Virus record (IMG/VR): IMGVR_UViG_2534681702_000003
Location: 1 to 33,145 of that record
Direction: 5' to 3' (one strand)
DNA length: 33,145 bases
Origin: a virus
Taxonomy: Duplodnaviria > Heunggongvirae > Uroviricota > Caudoviricetes
The notes below the pieces were generated by a model, which was given only the letters and a program-made list of their open reading frames with translations, ran no database searches and was not told the origin of the DNA. Below, piece by piece: positions 1,419 to 33,145 of this stretch. The translations under genes and the position numbers were made by a program. How positions within the stretch are numbered: the stretch's first letter is position 1; every line of letters begins with the position of its first letter.

Positions 1419-2759
1419 TTAAAAATCAGCCTGATTCGGGATCAGTTTTTGCCAGATAGCTGAAACGTATTTTGCCTGGTGACGAGCGTCATCAAGTGCA
1501 TTATGGCGCTCACCTTCGAATGGAATAGCCGTTCTGGCATCGAAGTCTATGGCTTTCCCCAGCTCAACGATTGTGCGTACATCGCGATCGTTGTCGTAAC
1601 GCCACGGGCAGGGGATCCCCTGCCGTTCGTATGAACGGCGCAAAATCGTGTTGTCGAAGTTGGCTCCATTTCCCCAGACCTGAACAAAAAATTCACCGGA
1701 GTTTTCGTCGATAAATTCCCGCAATTGTAACAGTGCATCATCTAACGGGATTTCATCGGTCATAATGGCAGATTGCGCTTCGCGTGATTGCTTAAGCCAC
1801 CATTTAATGGTGTCCCGATCAATGACTCCGCCAGCAGTTTCCAGATCGACAGTCTTACTAAATTCCGGTCCCATATCTCCGGTTTGCGGATCGAAAAATA
1901 TTGCACCTATTGAGATAATCGGGGCATCGGGATTTTTTCCCATGGTTTCAAGGTCGATCATCAGATGAATCCCCGCTCTGCTGGTGGATGTGAGATTATG
2001 ATGACCGTTCGCCTTAATTAAGGGATCTGACGCCTCGCCAGTTTCACTATCGCTGGCATGATGCTGATTGCCGCCAGTGTTCTCCTTGTGCTGATGCGCA
2101 GTGCCTTCCATTTCCTCCGGATCATTTTCCTGAACTTCAGGCTGATTCTCTCCATCGAATATTTCCTGGTATGTTGCGTCCCCCATCACCGCACCACAAT
2201 CAGGGCAGTTGCCGCCACCGCTCTGACCGCAGGCGGTGCAGATTTTTTCCGGTTCCTGTTGCACTACTGGTTCAGGTTGTTTCGTTTCTGGCTCGTTTTG
2301 TTGCGTATTTGGGCTGTTTTGTTCCGCTTTCTGGTCGTTCTGTTCCGTTTCTTGCTGGTTCTGGTTCACAGTATCGCGGGTTTCAATCCCCTTCACCCAT
2401 TTCGGATCATTCGGGTCGCTAATCCCTTCAATAAATTCACCACGTGATGCAGCAAGCAACTTATCGGCGTCAGGCTGGCTGATATTGGCTGCCTGCATAA
2501 TTTTGTTTACTTCGTCAGCGGTAACTTTTACCGGTTCTGGCTGTGCGGTCGTGTCAGATGCACCAGTATTTTGTTGTGAACCTGAGCATGTACTGTTTTT
2601 GCGGGCGAAATATTCTTCTTTCGTGATTTCAGTAGCCCCGGCAGCCAGCGCCTTATCCAGACCAGAAAGTTTGTTTGCGCGACCGTATTTTTCGCCATCC
2701 TTGTCGGTGAAGAGGAAGTAGAACGGCCCCTCACGCTCTACAGATGGTTCGACTTCCAC
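1419..2759 (-). CDS. DEDDh-family 3'-5' exonuclease (DnaQ-like) with Q/E/N-rich N-terminal region and Cys4 zinc-ribbon
   Basis: 446-aa ORF; motifs MIDLETMG (Exo I), VWGNGANFDNTIL (Exo II), HNALDDARH (Exo III); CTACG...CPDCG; apparent GTG start overlapping upstream gene. Confidence 0.75.
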   Translation of the reverse strand: MEVEPSVEREGPFYFLFTDKDGEKYGRANKLSGLDKALAAGATEITKEEYFARKNSTCSGSQQNTGASDTTAQPEPVKVTADEVNKIMQAANISQPDADKLLAASRGEFIEGISDPNDPKWVKGIETRDTVNQNQQETEQNDQKAEQNSPNTQQNEPETKQPEPVVQQEPEKICTACGQSGGGNCPDCGAVMGDATYQEIFDGENQPEVQENDPEEMEGTAHQHKENTGGNQHHASDSETGEASDPLIKANGHHNLTSTSRAGIHLMIDLETMGKNPDAPIISIGAIFFDPQTGDMGPEFSKTVDLETAGGVIDRDTIKWWLKQSREAQSAIMTDEIPLDDALLQLREFIDENSGEFFVQVWGNGANFDNTILRRSYERQGIPCPWRYDNDRDVRTIVELGKAIDFDARTAIPFEGERHNALDDARHQAKYVSAIWQKLIPNQADF

Positions 2760-3889
2760 TTTGCATTCGGTTTTTCGTTGTCCGGAATTGCCGTTTCCAC
2801 TGCATCAGTTTCTGGTACTGGCGACGAGAGAGTATCAGTTGCGCTCTGATTTGTTCCTTCATCTTCAAACACGCCCTTTGTAGTCAGGTATTCAGTAATG
2901 TATTTGTTCAGTGCCACAGAGTCTTTGTGAATGTCGATCGGACGTTCACGAACAAGGCCAAAAATAGTCTGGCGGTCGTAGCGAAGGGCATCAGGCTGTT
3001 TGCGCATTGATGCCGAGATACGCTTCCAGTCTTCGCGGTCGTTGTCGATAACTTCATTTTTTGCCCAGCGATGGATGCTGCCGCCAATGTTTCCGGCATC
3101 CACATCACCAGGCCAGAGAGCGTAGGCCAGTTCATCATCCAGTGTTTTCCATGTCTGCTTGTATTCGCGACGAATGACTGCAGTGACAGGGTGGATTTTT
3201 TCTGCTGAGTTTTCAGTGTACTGTTGATTGGCTCTGGCGCGGGCGAGATCAACAACAGACGTGTATTTCCCGGTTTCCTTGCGTTCACCTTCGCGACGTT
3301 TTTTCCAGATGCGCATCTCTGCCTGAATTTCGGGCCATTTGGCACCAGGCTTACATTTATGCTTAACCCACCCGATGGCATGCAGCTTAAGCTCCGGATA
3401 CATGGCGTTAACTTCTGGCATTTTCATCAACGCTTCAACGATATGTCCGTCGAATGTTGCCATGTCTTCCTGCAACAATTCCTGCGCGCTAATCACCATA
3501 TCAACGGTGATGTTTTCACATGTGTCGAACTTAACCATGACAGCGTTCTGTACTTCAGGGGCCAGCTTGTCAAAAGTGACGTTCATCGGATCTGATTCAG
3601 TCTCAACCGGGACAAAGGAAGCAGACTCCTCATCCCAGCGGTTTTCCTGCATATATTCAGCATCCCAGGAATCGAGGGCAGGGCGGGGTATACCGGGCTT
3701 ATCCTCGCAGATAATAAATTTATAAGCGCAGTCCTGAGCAGCCGGATAATGTTCCAGGAATTGCCAGTGAAATTTTGCTCGAGCACGGCGTTCGTCGCCA
3801 GCTTCAATGGCTGTGGCTACAGCCACAGCGCCTTCTTCCCTTGTTGCCAGTTCGTCAGGAATAGCGGCGCAAATAAAGACTTTACTCAT
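2738..3889 (-). CDS. Hypothetical early-left operon protein (383 aa)
   Basis: Long ORF, GAGG RBS upstream of ATG at 3889, overlaps start of exonuclease gene; no family recognised. Confidence 0.6.
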   Translation of the reverse strand: MSKVFICAAIPDELATREEGAVAVATAIEAGDERRARAKFHWQFLEHYPAAQDCAYKFIICEDKPGIPRPALDSWDAEYMQENRWDEESASFVPVETESDPMNVTFDKLAPEVQNAVMVKFDTCENITVDMVISAQELLQEDMATFDGHIVEALMKMPEVNAMYPELKLHAIGWVKHKCKPGAKWPEIQAEMRIWKKRREGERKETGKYTSVVDLARARANQQYTENSAEKIHPVTAVIRREYKQTWKTLDDELAYALWPGDVDAGNIGGSIHRWAKNEVIDNDREDWKRISASMRKQPDALRYDRQTIFGLVRERPIDIHKDSVALNKYITEYLTTKGVFEDEGTNQSATDTLSSPVPETDAVETAIPDNEKPNAKWKSNHL

Positions 3890-3969: not shown

Positions 3970-4173
3970 TTACGGTGCTGTTTTAAGTCCTGCCGGGATT
4001 TCGTTATTATCCATGTGAATAACTTTATCGACCGGATAACAGTTACCGGGAATTTTCTGTTCCACTGCGGCAACCATGCATTCTTTCATTGAGCCGTATA
4101 CGCCAGTAACCATGTCAACCGGTTCACCGGAAACAAGAAAAACCGTCAGAACAAGTGCAAATGTAGTATTCAT
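3970..4173 (-). CDS. ydfD: YdfD-like small protein with N-terminal hydrophobic segment
   Basis: 67 aa from MNTTFALVLTVFLVSG...; start overlaps dicB stop (ATGA); same position as ydfD downstream of dicB in Qin. Confidence 0.55.
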   Translation of the reverse strand: MNTTFALVLTVFLVSGEPVDMVTGVYGSMKECMVAAVEQKIPGNCYPVDKVIHMDNNEIPAGLKTAP

Positions 4174-4358
4174 TGCCAGCATCCTTTTTGCATCAGGCGT
4201 AAACGGGCCAGCATTGAAACAATGCATATTTTATCCAATAGCTCCCGTTCTTGTTTCCTCTTGTTAATGGCATCTTCAGTAAATACTGGGTTACTGATAG
4301 TGACACCAATTTCAAAACAACCTTCAGACGTATTAACGTTTGGTAATAACGTTTTCAT
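4170..4358 (-). CDS. dicB: Cell-division inhibitor DicB
   Basis: 62 aa MKTLLPNVNTSEGCFEIGVTISNPVFTEDAINKRKQERELL... matches recalled DicB almost residue for residue; GAGGGTG RBS. Confidence 0.8.
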   Translation of the reverse strand: MKTLLPNVNTSEGCFEIGVTISNPVFTEDAINKRKQERELLDKICIVSMLARLRLMQKGCWQ

Positions 4359-4527: not shown

Positions 4528-4585
4528 AAAAAGGGCAGCAGAGCAGTCACGGAGTAAAACTGATACCACCAAACGTCACCAGAAA
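4528..4585 (-). ncRNA. dicF: DicF small RNA
   Basis: Minus-strand sequence UUUCUGGUGACGUUUGGUGGUAUCAGUUUUACUCCGUGACUGCUCUGCUGCCCUUUUU matches recalled DicF, ends in U-tract, lies immediately upstream of dicB. Confidence 0.8.
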
Positions 4586-4920
4586 ATTGATAACAGAGGG
4601 CGTTGCAGCGGGGTTGTCACTTAAGCGTATGGTCAACCTGGCAACCCGGTGTCTCAATGGGGGAGGAATAACCCCGCCATACTTACCGCCGCGCCATTTC
4701 GCGGAGTGCCACAACCGGAAGCGCACGGTCGAATTAAATTTAACGACACCGTACAGTGAGACGAACTTCGCCGTGCGCTTTCGCGTTATGCCCTGGCTTT
4801 TCAGGGATATATCCTTTCAGTAAACTGTCAGTACCGGATTCTTATCCGTGTCCGGCGCACGACCACACGTGGCAGCGTGTTGGTCTCCATTTTTAACCCA
4901 GAACCTCAATGGAGGATAAA

Positions 4921-5130
4921 ATGCCAAACAAAAAAAGAAATCCGCTTATTGAAAAACAGATTGAATGCCTGGTAAATCAACTCAGGCAATCAGGGTTATT
5001 AAAAACTCATTCAGAGTTGAGGCTCACAGAATCAGCATTCGACGATAAATTAAATAATGTCCTTTATAATGGCATTATTGATTTTAATCGTTCAGTTGGT
5101 CGCCTCGGCCCTGCTGGTGTTTCCTTATAA
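4921..5130 (+). CDS. Hypothetical small protein (69 aa), opposite orientation to early-left operon
   Basis: ATG at 4921 preceded by GGAGGAT; stop abuts stop of convergent 212-aa gene; no homology recognised. Confidence 0.35.
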   Translation: MPNKKRNPLIEKQIECLVNQLRQSGLLKTHSELRLTESAFDDKLNNVLYNGIIDFNRSVGRLGPAGVSL

Positions 5131-5769
5131 TTACCAGTCAATCCAGAGCGGACCGTGTTCAGCGTAAATATAACTGTACACATCCAGATTATATTTGTGG
5201 TCTGTTAAGAACAGGCCGCAAATACATGCCGAAGCTTCCAGGGCAGCGGCTCTGTTACTGAATAACCATGTGGCAACATTCCAGCGTTTTTCTGCATCCC
5301 AGTCTTTCTCAAGGCCTGATACCATGAAGAAACCGTTAGTGTTGCCATCAAATAATTCTGTTTCCAGATTTTTAAGCAATGCCTGATGGACTCTTGCCAG
5401 GTATTCCGCCGGAATTTCGCCACGAATTCTGATGAGATTGTCATAAACAAACATGTTCCCCGCATATGGCGATTTTTCTTTCTTGTTTTTTAAACCAGCA
5501 TCATGAGCAAACTGATCAATTTCTTCTTCCGTTGGTTTCGTATTGATGTTTTGCGCTGTCGTTTCTGCAATTTTATTTGCCACACTATCTGAGTCGTGTT
5601 TATTTACAGACGCACAGAAATACAATCCGGTAAACGCATCGCGCACATTACGAGCCATATTATCAGTGTCTTTTTTCGTTACCGATTCCAATGCAAGTTC
5701 GTTCAGACGATGACGAAGTGTGTGTGCTGCAATCTCCTGGATTGAAGTAGGTAAATCTTTAAATTCCAT
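5131..5769 (-). CDS. Hypothetical protein (212 aa)
   Basis: ORF with GAGG RBS before second ATG (MEFKDL...); start overlaps stop of upstream DUF1391-like gene. Confidence 0.6.
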   Translation of the reverse strand: MEFKDLPTSIQEIAAHTLRHRLNELALESVTKKDTDNMARNVRDAFTGLYFCASVNKHDSDSVANKIAETTAQNINTKPTEEEIDQFAHDAGLKNKKEKSPYAGNMFVYDNLIRIRGEIPAEYLARVHQALLKNLETELFDGNTNGFFMVSGLEKDWDAEKRWNVATWLFSNRAAALEASACICGLFLTDHKYNLDVYSYIYAEHGPLWIDW

Positions 5770-5780
5770 CGTCAACCTCA

Positions 5781-5933
5781 TCAGTCAGAGTTTCTTGCTA
5801 ACCAGCGATGCGCGCCAGCTTCGGTTTTAAACGTTTTGCTTTTGGTATACGTCATCGCGGTGAACGTGCCGTCCTGGTTGGGAAACACGCCGCACACCAG
5901 AGATTCGTTGTTGCCAAGATCGATAGTATCCAT
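5781..5933 (-). CDS. YdfA/YdaF-like small protein (DUF1391-like)
   Basis: 50 aa MDTIDLGNNESLVCGVFPNQDGTFTAMTYTKSKTFKTE... resembles recalled YdaF/YdfA; GAGG RBS. Confidence 0.55.
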   Translation of the reverse strand: MDTIDLGNNESLVCGVFPNQDGTFTAMTYTKSKTFKTEAGAHRWLARNSD

Positions 5934-6014: not shown

Positions 6015-6225
6015 GTTCTTACGCCTCGGGCTGGCTACTTAACCCCTGACCACTGCCGGGTAACTCGAAGTATTGCCCTGCATTCTGTGGGGTGGAGTGA
6101 GGGAATGAATGAAGTTTAGAAAAATGAACTTTACAGGTCAATGTTTTTTTATCAAAACATTTTAAGCAGGCAGCTGTTAAGCCATCACCACGATGGCATA
6201 CAGTTAATCAAATAGATGAGGTTGG
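6015..6225. promoter_or_regulatory. Putative leftward early promoter/operator region (pL/OL-like)
   Basis: Non-coding gap downstream of cI; contains GTTTTTTTATCAAAAC (6143-6158) sharing the GTTTT-N6-AAAAC pattern of the cI-cro intergenic sites. Confidence 0.4.
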
Positions 6226-6864
6226 TTAAATATCTTGTTGAATTTTAAAGCATACGCCCAATATGCAAGATAGATCATCCAGCATAATTGAAGGGTAGCG
6301 AGGATTCGTGGGGACTAAAAGAATATCCGGCCCTTCTATCTCCAGTTTACGAATGACAGGTGTTGTGGTCCCTTTGGGTAAGGCAAGGACAATATTTCCT
6401 GGTTGTACGGTTCGATCGGGATCAACAAAAACTGTTGAACCATTTGGGATGGAAACTCCCCCACCAGATGTTGACATACTGTCACTCTCTAGAACAACTG
6501 CAAAGGTATTGGCCGGGATTTCTCCGACAAGCTGCACACAAGAGGTTATTGAGGAATTTTTCATATAATCACTCCAGCTTGCTGCCTGCTGAAGTGATAG
6601 TAGCGGAACCGTTTTTATCGGCGGTAAAGATAGATCAAGCGAATCACCTGTATTTAACTCTCCTCCATTAAGAAGCCAATTTTCGTTTACTTTCAATATC
6701 TTTGCCAGTGAACTTATGTAACGCGAGGACGGCGCTCCTCCACCGTTCATCCATTGACTTACGGAGCCTTTTGATGCGCCAGTGGCATTGACAAGGTCTT
6801 TGCCTTTCAGGTTTAGCGCATGCATACGTTGGGTTATGCGTTCAGATATTGTTTGCTTGCTCAT
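6226..6864 (-). CDS. CI-like prophage repressor (N-terminal HTH, C-terminal S24 LexA-like peptidase)
   Basis: 212 aa; HTH LKGKDLVNATGASKGSVSQW; C-terminal ...AVVLESDSM... (GDSM-like catalytic Ser motif); divergent from cro-like gene. Confidence 0.88.
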   Translation of the reverse strand: MSKQTISERITQRMHALNLKGKDLVNATGASKGSVSQWMNGGGAPSSRYISSLAKILKVNENWLLNGGELNTGDSLDLSLPPIKTVPLLSLQQAASWSDYMKNSSITSCVQLVGEIPANTFAVVLESDSMSTSGGGVSIPNGSTVFVDPDRTVQPGNIVLALPKGTTTPVIRKLEIEGPDILLVPTNPRYPSIMLDDLSCILGVCFKIQQDI

Positions 6865-6955
6865 GTTTTGATTTTAAAACACAGATGGTTTTGTTTCTTG
6901 ACTTTCTTTGGTTTTGATTATTAAACTTTTGGCGTTCAGTTTTATGGAGCGACTC
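6865..6955. promoter_or_regulatory. Divergent promoter/operator region between cI and cro-like gene
   Basis: Two 16-bp sites GTTTTGATTTTAAAAC (6865-6880) and GTTTTGATTATTAAAC (6911-6926), imperfect palindromes, about 46 bp apart. Confidence 0.55.
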
Positions 6956-11831: not shown

Positions 11832-12154
11832 TGCAAAAATTTCCTGTAAAAAATAATTACATACTTAAGATACTACAAAGAATAATGCGTACGCAAAATT
11901 TTTTGTTGAGTAGAATATGTTCGCGGGGTATTTTTCGTTAAGATATAATTACCATGGTAACTTTTGCGTTGGTAATGCATTATGTGGTGGAGAAAAAGAG
12001 AGAGTCTTATCTTTAAATTATCGCCAGCCTATATGACTATATGAGTAGTATTTAGATGGGAAATTGTTGAGTTATTGAAAGGAACCATAACCTTTATGTA
12101 AAATTACTGCGGGTGCTTGAGGTTATCTGTCTCAGGCATGCCACCAAAAGGCAG

Positions 12155-12232
12155 ATAGAGAAAAGCCCCAGTTAACGTTACGCGTCCTGCAAGACGTTTA
12201 ACATTAATCTGAGGCTCAATCTATGAACGGCA
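12155..12232 (-). ncRNA. Predicted Sok-like antisense RNA
   Basis: Inferred from hok/sok organisation; candidate minus-strand promoter TTGCCT-17-TAACCT inside mok 5' end; boundaries approximate. Confidence 0.3.
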
Positions 12233-12435
12233 AATCTAGGTTAGCCTCTTACGTGCCGAAAGGCAAGGAGAAGCAGGCTATGAAGCAGCAAAAGGCGATG
12301 TTAATCGCCCTGATCGTCATCTGTTTAACCGTCATAGTGACGGCACTGGTAACGAGGAAAGACCTCTGCGAGGTACGAATCCGAACCGGCCAGAAGGAGG
12401 TCGCTGTCTTCACAGCTTACGAACCTGAGGAGTAA
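12223..12435 (+). CDS. Mok-like in-frame leader ORF overlapping hok
   Basis: 70-aa ORF whose last 51 codons are hok; same arrangement as mokC/hokC. Confidence 0.5.
   Translation: MNGKSRLASYVPKGKEKQAMKQQKAMLIALIVICLTVIVTALVTRKDLCEVRIRTGQKEVAVFTAYEPEE
12280..12435 (+). CDS. Hok/Gef-family type I toxin
   Basis: 51 aa MKQQKAMLIALIVICLTVIVTALVTRKDLCEVRIRTGQKEVAVFTAYEPEE, near-identical in pattern to recalled Gef/HokC; AAGGAG RBS. Confidence 0.85.
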   Translation: MKQQKAMLIALIVICLTVIVTALVTRKDLCEVRIRTGQKEVAVFTAYEPEE

Positions 12436-32878: not shown

Positions 32879-33145
32879 ATGCTGCCGCAGCATAGCGATA
32901 TTGAAATAGCCTGGTATGCTTCGATACAGCAGGAGCCGAATGGCTGGAAGACCGTCACCACACAGTTCTACATCCAGGAATTCAGTGAGCATATTGCGCC
33001 ACTTCAGGATGCTGTAGATCTGGAGATCGCAACGGAGGAAGAAAACTCGTTGCTGGAAGCCTGGAAGAAGTATCGGGTGTTGCTGAACCGTGTTGATACA
33101 TCAACCGCACCTGATATTGAGTGGCCGACTTCACCTGCAGAGTAA
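32879..33145 (+). pseudogene. Tail fibre assembly (tfa) 3' fragment
   Basis: 88-aa ORF ending ...[53 protein letters not shown], matching recalled lambda Tfa C-terminus; too short for a complete tfa. Confidence 0.6.

Follow-up and report, generated by a model that had tools for sequence, protein, structure and literature searches.

In the operons of pore-forming colicins, the toxin gene is induced and a lysis gene comes after it; between the two sits an immunity gene, read from the other strand and under its own promoter. When the specificity of the toxin is exchanged, that of the immunity protein is exchanged with it (PMC9517006). Polymorphic toxin systems, such as the CdiA-CT/CdiI pairs of contact-dependent inhibition (CDI) and the Rhs-CT/immunity pairs, combine a conserved N-terminal part with many unrelated C-terminal domains, each with a cognate small gene directly downstream. 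We report here on a pair of phage genes that resembles both arrangements. It lies at positions 4921 to 5769 of a stretch of 33,145 nucleotides (nt) of Caudoviricetes DNA (IMG/VR record IMGVR_UViG_2534681702_000003), which as a whole is called the window in what follows, and it consists of a gene for a protein of 212 amino acids (aa) and of a 69-aa gene on the opposite strand, placed tail to tail with it. The two genes form a co-inherited cassette, kept as a pair across distant lineages, and this cassette is one of at least six interchangeable combinations of a C-terminal domain with a small opposite-strand gene.

As in the colicin A and E1 operons, an inducible gene is followed by a small reversed gene and then by a host-damaging function: lysis in the colicin operons, DicF and DicB here. 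The differences are several: colicins of this class are exported and their immunity proteins sit in the membrane, whereas the two proteins of the present pair are soluble, with no signal for export; the two sets of proteins are alike in neither sequence nor fold; and the toxicity of the 212-aa protein and the promoter of the small gene are putative. Polymorphic toxins, for their part, are large secreted proteins with delivery domains and co-directional immunity genes, while the larger proteins of the present cassettes have 112-212 aa, are cytoplasmic and belong to a phage early operon, with a convergent small gene; no known toxin or immunity domain was detected in the cassette proteins. The likeness to both systems is best regarded as one of design only, both proteins here being, by prediction, cytoplasmic.

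Three other comparisons are useful. Type II toxin-antitoxin (TA) pairs are also made of two small cytoplasmic proteins, one acidic and one basic, co-inherited on mobile elements, but they are co-transcribed and autoregulated, whereas the genes here are convergent with abutting stops, show no homology to TA families in Pfam, NCBIfam or PADLOC, and include a larger member that occurs without the small one in some prophages. Convergent transcription that overlaps the 3' end of a gene in the early regulatory region is familiar from cII and OOP of phage lambda; OOP, however, is a non-coding RNA of 77 nt with a defined promoter and terminator, and the convergent unit here encodes a protein under selection. 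Finally, SieB and Rex, like the 69-aa gene, lie in or near the early-left region in an orientation independent of the lytic operon, but they are membrane proteins, whereas the 69-aa protein has no hydrophobic segment (maximum 19-residue Kyte-Doolittle mean of 0.46) and no sequence similarity to them. In the Rac prophage of Escherichia coli K-12, sieB is likewise reversed, beside the DUF1391 gene ydaF.

The 69-aa gene occupies positions 4921-5130 of the plus strand, starts with MPNKKRNP, and is preceded by the Shine-Dalgarno (SD) sequence GGAGGA at 4911-4916 (+), where the string CAATGGAGGATAAAATG is unchanged in both allele classes of the gene. The 212-aa gene, on the minus strand, covers 5131-5769. 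Their stop codons touch: the TAA of the small gene is at 5128-5130, and the reverse complement of the TAA of the large gene is at 5131-5133. An earlier note on this DNA had given these coordinates, the SD sequence and the abutting stops, and all were correct when the sequence was re-read. An upstream in-frame ATG at 5781 would lengthen the 212-aa product by four residues, to 216 aa; the start at MEFKD is preferred because all homologues and the Prokaryotic Genome Annotation Pipeline (PGAP) begin there, and because it has its own GAGG box, at 5775-5778. The stop of the preceding DUF1391 gene lies 11 nt upstream of this ATG.

The 69-aa open reading frame (ORF) is a genuine protein-coding gene under purifying selection. 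The chance that 69 codons are open, computed as the probability of staying open after a fixed ATG in a sequence of matching composition, is about 0.007. Related loci, 94 in number, were gathered from IMG/VR, metagenomes and E. coli genomes; nearly all have the ORF, its stop abutting that of the large gene as in the window, and about 76 of 84 loci retain it undamaged. When the two allele classes are compared, the ratio of non-synonymous to synonymous substitution rates (dN/dS, by the Nei-Gojobori method) is 0.19-0.30 in the frame of the gene, the lowest of the six frames, with values of about 1-2 in most others; the antisense frame r2 is intermediate, at 0.34-0.62, which is ascribed to the coupling of wobble positions. 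Residues 8-54 of the protein account for 6-9 synonymous against 2-4 non-synonymous differences. The sites that segregate within the two classes number 6 and 20 (synonymous) and 6 and 13 (non-synonymous), in an ORF in which non-synonymous sites are about 3.5 times as numerous as synonymous ones. The earlier note had held that random synonymous and non-synonymous changes, and a lack of conservation in relatives, would speak against this gene; what is observed is a dN/dS of about 0.2-0.3 and an ORF conserved both in E. coli and, as described below, in Salmonella. The protein matches PHROG 4274 over positions 1-69 of 69 (E = 9.1e-51), and PGAP calls both genes as hypothetical proteins, WP_001133036.1 and WP_000394554.1, the first of which is the 69-aa product. 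Codons 3-6 of the gene contain an A7 homopolymer (4927-4939) that is absent from the second allele class. Eight loci, all of them older IMG/VR drafts, are one A short in this run, which puts the start codon out of frame; such deletions could be a sequencing artefact or slippage.

The two genes are found together. All 73 IMG/VR loci that have the small gene also have the large gene, with abutting stops, and the small gene was never found without it. Homologues of the 212-aa protein are confined to Escherichia and Salmonella, at 64-100% identity, as are those of the 69-aa protein. The large protein divides, by prediction, into three parts: a helical N-terminal module of about 58 aa, a polar linker, and an acidic alpha/beta C-terminal domain. 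The N-module (aa 1-60, MEFKDLP..IQEIAA..IDNMxRNVRDAFTGLY; positions 5590-5769, minus strand) is common to many early-operon proteins, and it is the C-terminal domain (aa 100-212 and stop; positions 5131-5472, minus strand) that the small gene accompanies.

The stronger evidence for this association is from Salmonella. A profile search of 1.84 billion representative sequences found only two remote relatives of the C-domain, both of them Salmonella prophage proteins. Their loci encode a 64-aa homologue of the 69-aa protein (44-47% identity, BLASTP E = 5e-13, PHROG 4274), convergent with the C-domain protein and overlapping it by 11 nt in each of the nine loci examined. The pN/pS of this 64-aa gene is about 0.26-0.37. 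The C-domain partner, of 203-307 aa, has a different N-terminus, contains in most cases an inserted HTH_3 domain, and follows a Cox-like gene in an int-C/cox switch of the P2/186 type; as a helix-turn-helix (HTH) protein placed after cox, it stands at the position of cII in phage 186, with a weak "CII-like" PHROG match through its HTH, and it matches the RmrA models of PADLOC through its HTH alone. The E. coli and Salmonella settings thus have in common only the C-domain, the small protein and the tail-to-tail geometry, and the two genes, whose link the earlier note had overlooked, are better described as a co-inherited pair than as independent neighbours. In two Salmonella loci, another gene, of no known family, precedes the 64-aa gene in the same orientation: a 155-aa ORF in which two hydrophobic segments can be recognised by eye (L172, 1877-2344, minus strand) and the gene of a 144-aa protein (L174, 3975-4409, plus strand). 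The slot on the antisense side thus has room for a unit of two genes.

The same profile search returned about 45 short proteins that share only positions 1 to about 60 of the N-module with the 212-aa protein, and PHROGs 1363, 9419, 6937 and 33007 match only its residues 5-55 to 5-79. The N-module is joined to at least six unrelated C-termini, and five of these have their own, mutually unrelated, convergent ORF of 63-80 aa. These alternative small ORFs start behind a similar leader and SD sequence, and their ends fall within the large gene or at its 3' terminus. Five types are from E. coli. In the window type, or type 1, a 212-aa large protein faces the 69-aa ORF and the stops abut; the other combinations are a large protein of 112-119 aa with a 64-aa ORF (overlap of 11-32 nt), one of 135 aa with a 77-aa ORF (22 nt), one of 201 aa with a 63-aa ORF (22 nt), and one of 186 aa with an 80-aa ORF (43 nt). 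The chance of each small ORF being open is 0.003-0.02; PGAP calls at least the 77-aa and 64-aa alternatives, and none of the alternative ORFs has a Pfam family. In Salmonella, a second type keeps the N-terminus and the HTH, but has another C-terminus (200 aa) and a different convergent ORF, of 70 aa.

Among 111 distinct regions, the first C-terminal type is found with the first small ORF in 53, the second with the second in 10, the third with the third in 26, the fourth with the fourth in 6, and the fifth with the fifth in 4; no mixed combination occurs. These regions have what would be expected of polymorphic cassettes of effector and immunity genes: a conserved N-terminal region with multiple unrelated C-termini, five of which have their own small gene. 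Over 5,426 complete E. coli genomes, type 1 is present in 566, including O157:H7, type 3 in 650 and type 2 in 152. In E. coli EC12 (L318, 1081-1940), ydfC precedes a type 3 N-module gene (135 aa) with its convergent 77-aa partner. Since ydfC and a type 3 cassette are found together in some genomes, a cassette can join ydfC and need not replace it.

The 212-aa protein matches PHROG 2151 over positions 1-212 of 212 (E = 5.2e-145), and some records call it "Ybl81"; both PHROG 2151 and PHROG 4274 are uncharacterised phage families. Against Pfam, NCBIfam, PADLOC and the sequences of the Protein Data Bank (PDB), single-sequence and profile searches with both proteins reached no characterised family, and the defence models of PADLOC-DB v2 gave no family at E <= 1 for either. 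The earlier statement that the 212-aa product has no recognisable family thus holds for Pfam, NCBIfam, PADLOC and PDB, and must be amended for PHROG 2151. Among deposited phage genomes (INPHARED), neither protein was found at full length, only relatives of the N-module in Stx phages; a scan of genome contigs with the family alignment gave no matches, and the literature on Ybl81, on DUF1391, and on transcription starts around dicF, in O157 or antisense, yielded no published study of these genes.

Neither protein has a transmembrane segment by the 19-residue Kyte-Doolittle criterion, the maximum mean being 1.16 for the large one, and both are soluble. The C-domain is acidic, with an isoelectric point (pI) of 4.9 and a predicted order of strand-strand-helix-strand-strand-helix-strand, while the 69-aa protein is basic, with a pI of 9.4 (9.4-9.9 for the small proteins); we count these opposite charges in favour of pairing. 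In the alignment with the Salmonella relatives, none of the invariant residues of the C-domain is a His, Cys, Lys or Arg; this points to a domain that binds rather than one that catalyses. The AlphaFold2 models have mean confidence (pLDDT) values of 64.8 for the 212-aa protein and 58 for the 69-aa protein, the latter with helices at 8-24 and 37-60, and fold searches from these low-confidence models gave generic matches only. The top BFVD match, a cysteine protease fold of the Prp/YsxB kind, reached a Foldseek E-value of only 3e-3, and the His-Cys dyad of that family, at the junction of strand 2 and helix 1, has no counterpart among conserved residues of the C-domain alignment; we rejected it. 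The 69-aa protein is not a relative of the N-module of its neighbour (hhalign probability of 0.1%), and it is unrelated to the Qin antirepressor Rem.

The cassette lies in the variable slot of the early-left operon of a lambdoid prophage of the Qin/dicBF type. In the order of the operon, one finds the cI-like repressor (6226-6864, minus strand; HTH_3 and Peptidase_S24, Pfam E = 2e-13; PHROG 4), a PL-like promoter, the DUF1391 or YdfA-like gene that opens the operon (5781-5933, minus strand; PF07151, E = 1.9e-29, and PGAP annotation of an identical locus), the 212-aa gene as second gene, the reversed 69-aa gene, the small RNA DicF (4533-4584, minus strand; Rfam RF00039, 66.9 bits against a gathering score of 48), the cell-division inhibitor DicB (4170-4358, minus strand; PF05358, E = 2.3e-38, and PGAP), and, on the same strand after DicB, a DUF1482 or YdfD-like gene (Pfam E = 7.7e-23); a RecE-like exonuclease is also found in this arm. 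Promoter scans place the PL-like promoter, a strong one with the sequence TTGACC-17-TAAACT, at 6113-6141 of the minus strand, with a position weight matrix (PWM) score of 14.2. Together with an operator-like inverted repeat, ATGTTTTGAT..AAAACAT, which overlaps or adjoins the -35 box, it spans 6113-6160 (minus strand), and the repeat is found twice more on the PR side, at 6863-6881 and 6911-6929. The GC content of the cassette is 37-42%, against about 50% in the flanks, as in morons. The earlier note had placed the 212-aa gene at a site of host-takeover or exclusion genes in lambdoid phages: the position is indeed an early-left, repressor-controlled and variable accessory slot, but its dicBF, Qin-type setting had been missed.

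The Qin prophage of K-12 (ydfA-ydfB-ydfC-dicF-dicB-ydfD) shares with the window the repressor, DUF1391, DicF, DicB, DUF1482 and a homologous leader before dicF; it differs in having ydfB and ydfC in the slot, where no reversed gene is annotated. YdfB and YdfC, compared by inspection only, show no evident similarity to the 212-aa and 69-aa proteins, and some relatives retain ydfB or ydfC besides the cassette. In K-12, DicF is processed from a transcript that starts at the operon promoter, and RNase III takes part in the processing of dicBF (PMC10448788). No terminator was found between the 212-aa and the 69-aa genes. Given these two facts, RNA for DicF and DicB must here cross the small gene in the antisense direction. 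DicF is not a constant neighbour of the cassette, since five relatives (L014, L076, L083, L089 and L091) have no DicF match at the Rfam gathering score, with DicB and DUF1482 both there.

Two observations concern other genes of this region. The cI-like repressor is full length here (212 aa), while in E. coli 504838 and in O157:H7 SS17 the annotation at its place shows no more than a "LexA family" remnant of 339 nt; the prophage copy in the window may thus have a more intact switch than these two. The RecE-like exonuclease, at 1419-3889 (minus strand), consists of two overlapping ORFs, 1419-2759 and 2738-3889, in contrast to the one coding sequence, of 823 aa, in the almost identical prophage of E. 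coli 504838; the split is probably a frameshift or a pseudogene. Elsewhere in the window, Rfam identifies, all on the plus strand, a sok antitoxin RNA of the hok/sok type I TA system (12111-12285), two tRNA genes (16528-16600 and 16701-16774) and an IS009 RNA (32902-33105).

Between the region of the dicF precursor and the SD sequence of the small gene, the alignment reveals a conserved leader with two hairpins, CCGGA..TCCGG at 4834-4855 and ACACG..CGTGT at 4865-4880. The second hairpin keeps its position with different stems, CTCCAC..GTGGAG in K-12 and CCCAAC paired with GTTGGG in one Salmonella locus (L172), and these different but self-complementary stems suggest that an RNA structure is conserved. 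K-12, where there is no cassette, has this leader too. The best of the weak promoter candidates for the small gene, TTTTCA-17-TAAACT at 4798-4826 (plus strand), has a PWM score of 9.6, a value reached about once per kilobase by chance; it is also found in K-12 and is absent where another gene precedes the small ORF, and we consider it unconvincing. A further promoter-like site (4893-4922) was not retained, since it runs over the start codon.

The reading that we favour, with a probability of roughly 0.4, is that both genes form one functional cassette, in which a variable C-domain, borne by a carrier module, is matched with a cognate small partner or inhibitor, and in which the two are expressed reciprocally. 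The cassette would take the position of ydfB/ydfC, in the variable slot of the dicBF/Qin-type operon, and the 212-aa protein would be made only once the PL-like promoter is freed of the cI-type repressor. As cognate partner, its acidic C-domain would have the 69-aa protein, most likely a specific inhibitor akin to an antidote or an immunity protein. Since the genes are tail to tail, with no intergenic space or terminator, transcription of either runs antisense into the other, and reciprocal expression is to be expected: the small gene would be expressed while the operon is silent, and the large gene, then DicF and DicB, upon derepression. We infer from this arrangement, and from the conserved pairing, that the two proteins interact physically, that the small one inhibits the large one, and that their expression alternates.

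A number of observations weigh against this proposal. Nothing above background was found in the search for a sigma-70 promoter upstream of the small gene, in the E. coli as well as in the Salmonella lineages. The pLDDT values of 65 and 58 are low for both models. The perfect co-occurrence of the two genes could reflect only their adjacency between two conserved recombination anchors. The sixth C-terminal type (C6, 129 aa) has no convincing convergent ORF, and the diversity of the alternative small ORFs of types 2-5 is too low to demonstrate selection. In some loci the 69-aa ORF is broken, by two nonsense mutations and eight 1-nt deletions, next to an intact large gene. In four others, of one lineage (L012, L079, L089 and L091), the small gene is missing next to an intact large gene, its place being taken by a 170-aa gene; as an antidote, the small protein can therefore be dispensed with.

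This 170-aa gene encodes a protein with coiled-coil and CxxC...CxxC features, a member of PHROG 1244, a family of uncharacterised function. It occupies the antisense slot of the small gene, either upstream of it or in its place; examples are L091 4802-5317 (minus strand), L002 3432-3944 (plus strand) and L086 4979-5488 (minus strand). A promoter-like site, TTCCCC-16-TATAAT, lies 27-33 nt before its start, and is kept even between copies that are 35% identical.

The first alternative takes up the question of the anchors: the two genes would be unrelated accessory genes, uncoupled in function, and inherited jointly because recombination uses the coding sequence of the N-module on one side and the dicF leader on the other. 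The breakpoints do fall at conserved flanks, tables of association cannot tell linkage from function, and either gene can decay while the other is intact. However, small ORFs in convergent position are found again and again, in no fewer than six unrelated cassettes and with two different prophage switch architectures, and the Salmonella pair persists even though the N-terminus, the linker and the flanking genes all differ. We consider this alternative unlikely.

A second possibility, put forward in the earlier note, is that the 69-aa gene is an autonomous gene of superinfection exclusion or defence, expressed in the lysogen beside an early gene that has nothing to do with it. Its orientation against a repressed operon, like that of sieB in Rac, and the low GC content of a moron-like insert agree with this idea, as does the fact that the antisense slot elsewhere holds the 170-aa gene, with its perfect -10 box, or the 155-aa ORF with its two hydrophobic segments. 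The 69-aa protein itself, however, is soluble and without a transmembrane segment, has no match in PADLOC, Pfam or NCBIfam, and is preceded by no promoter that we could find; moreover, the gene was always found with the C-domain, also in the distant lineage where both the N-terminus and the type of switch are different, which is not what one would expect of an autonomous gene. The idea fares poorly on these results, and we regard it as rather improbable.

The pair might also be mainly a device at the level of RNA, in which convergent interference, or antisense pairing, limits leaky read-through into the toxic dicF-dicB genes, much as OOP acts against cII in lambda, the protein being secondary. 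Stops that abut or overlap by 11-43 nt with no terminator in between, the transcription of DicF and DicB through the region, and the role of RNase III in K-12 would all suit such a device. A possible stem, CUGGUG..UACCAG (5105-5145 of the window), has both stop codons in its loop, and Salmonella has a comparable pairing of longer range, in which the codons for PAGV in the small gene face those for W-V in the large one. This junction hairpin is not significant, its folding energy against shuffled sequences giving z = -1.6 to +0.4; selection acts at the level of amino acids and the proteins are 46% identical between genera, which shows that the protein itself matters; and the cassette is also present in loci without DicF, with no promoter detected for the small gene. 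We regard an explanation mainly by RNA as rather improbable, too. A variant in which the small-gene transcript would be an establishment transcript running into the repressor fits the P2-like layout of Salmonella, but here cI is on the other strand, and we set it aside.

As for the view that the 69-aa frame is open by chance and is no gene, its short length, a family annotation without known function and the missing promoter are outweighed by an open-frame probability of about 0.007, the lowest dN/dS of the six frames, the intact copies in about 76 of 84 loci and a Salmonella homologue at about 46% identity, and we consider it already refuted.

If we return to the favoured reading of one functional cassette, a broader and more doubtful conjecture can be made: that temperate phages of Enterobacteriaceae, with switches of both the lambdoid/Qin and the P2/186 kinds, carry an unrecognised family of polymorphic two-protein cassettes, placed right after the first gene of the early operon that the repressor controls, each with a variable effector domain on a conserved carrier module and with a type-specific antidote. 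By virtue of the convergent layout, the small protein would be an antidote of the lysogenic state and the C-domain protein an effector of induction or infection; the antidote of a resident prophage would neutralise the effectors of incoming phages of the same cassette type, a form of type-specific exclusion, or guard against leakage, and the diversity of the cassettes would have been driven by conflict.

These cassettes are common in E. coli, and they are annotated as hypothetical proteins only. Cell division, metabolism and phage resistance are under the control of DicF and DicB, as is, in enterohaemorrhagic E. coli, the expression of virulence genes (PMC5069750, PMC6832061, PMC7873438), and a convergent gene in the path of their transcript could gate these toxic products. 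If the cassettes are indeed sets of effectors and antidotes, their five or more natural specificity types could be used to compare cross-protection, and they would represent a new class of modules in the conflicts between phages, or between phages and their hosts.

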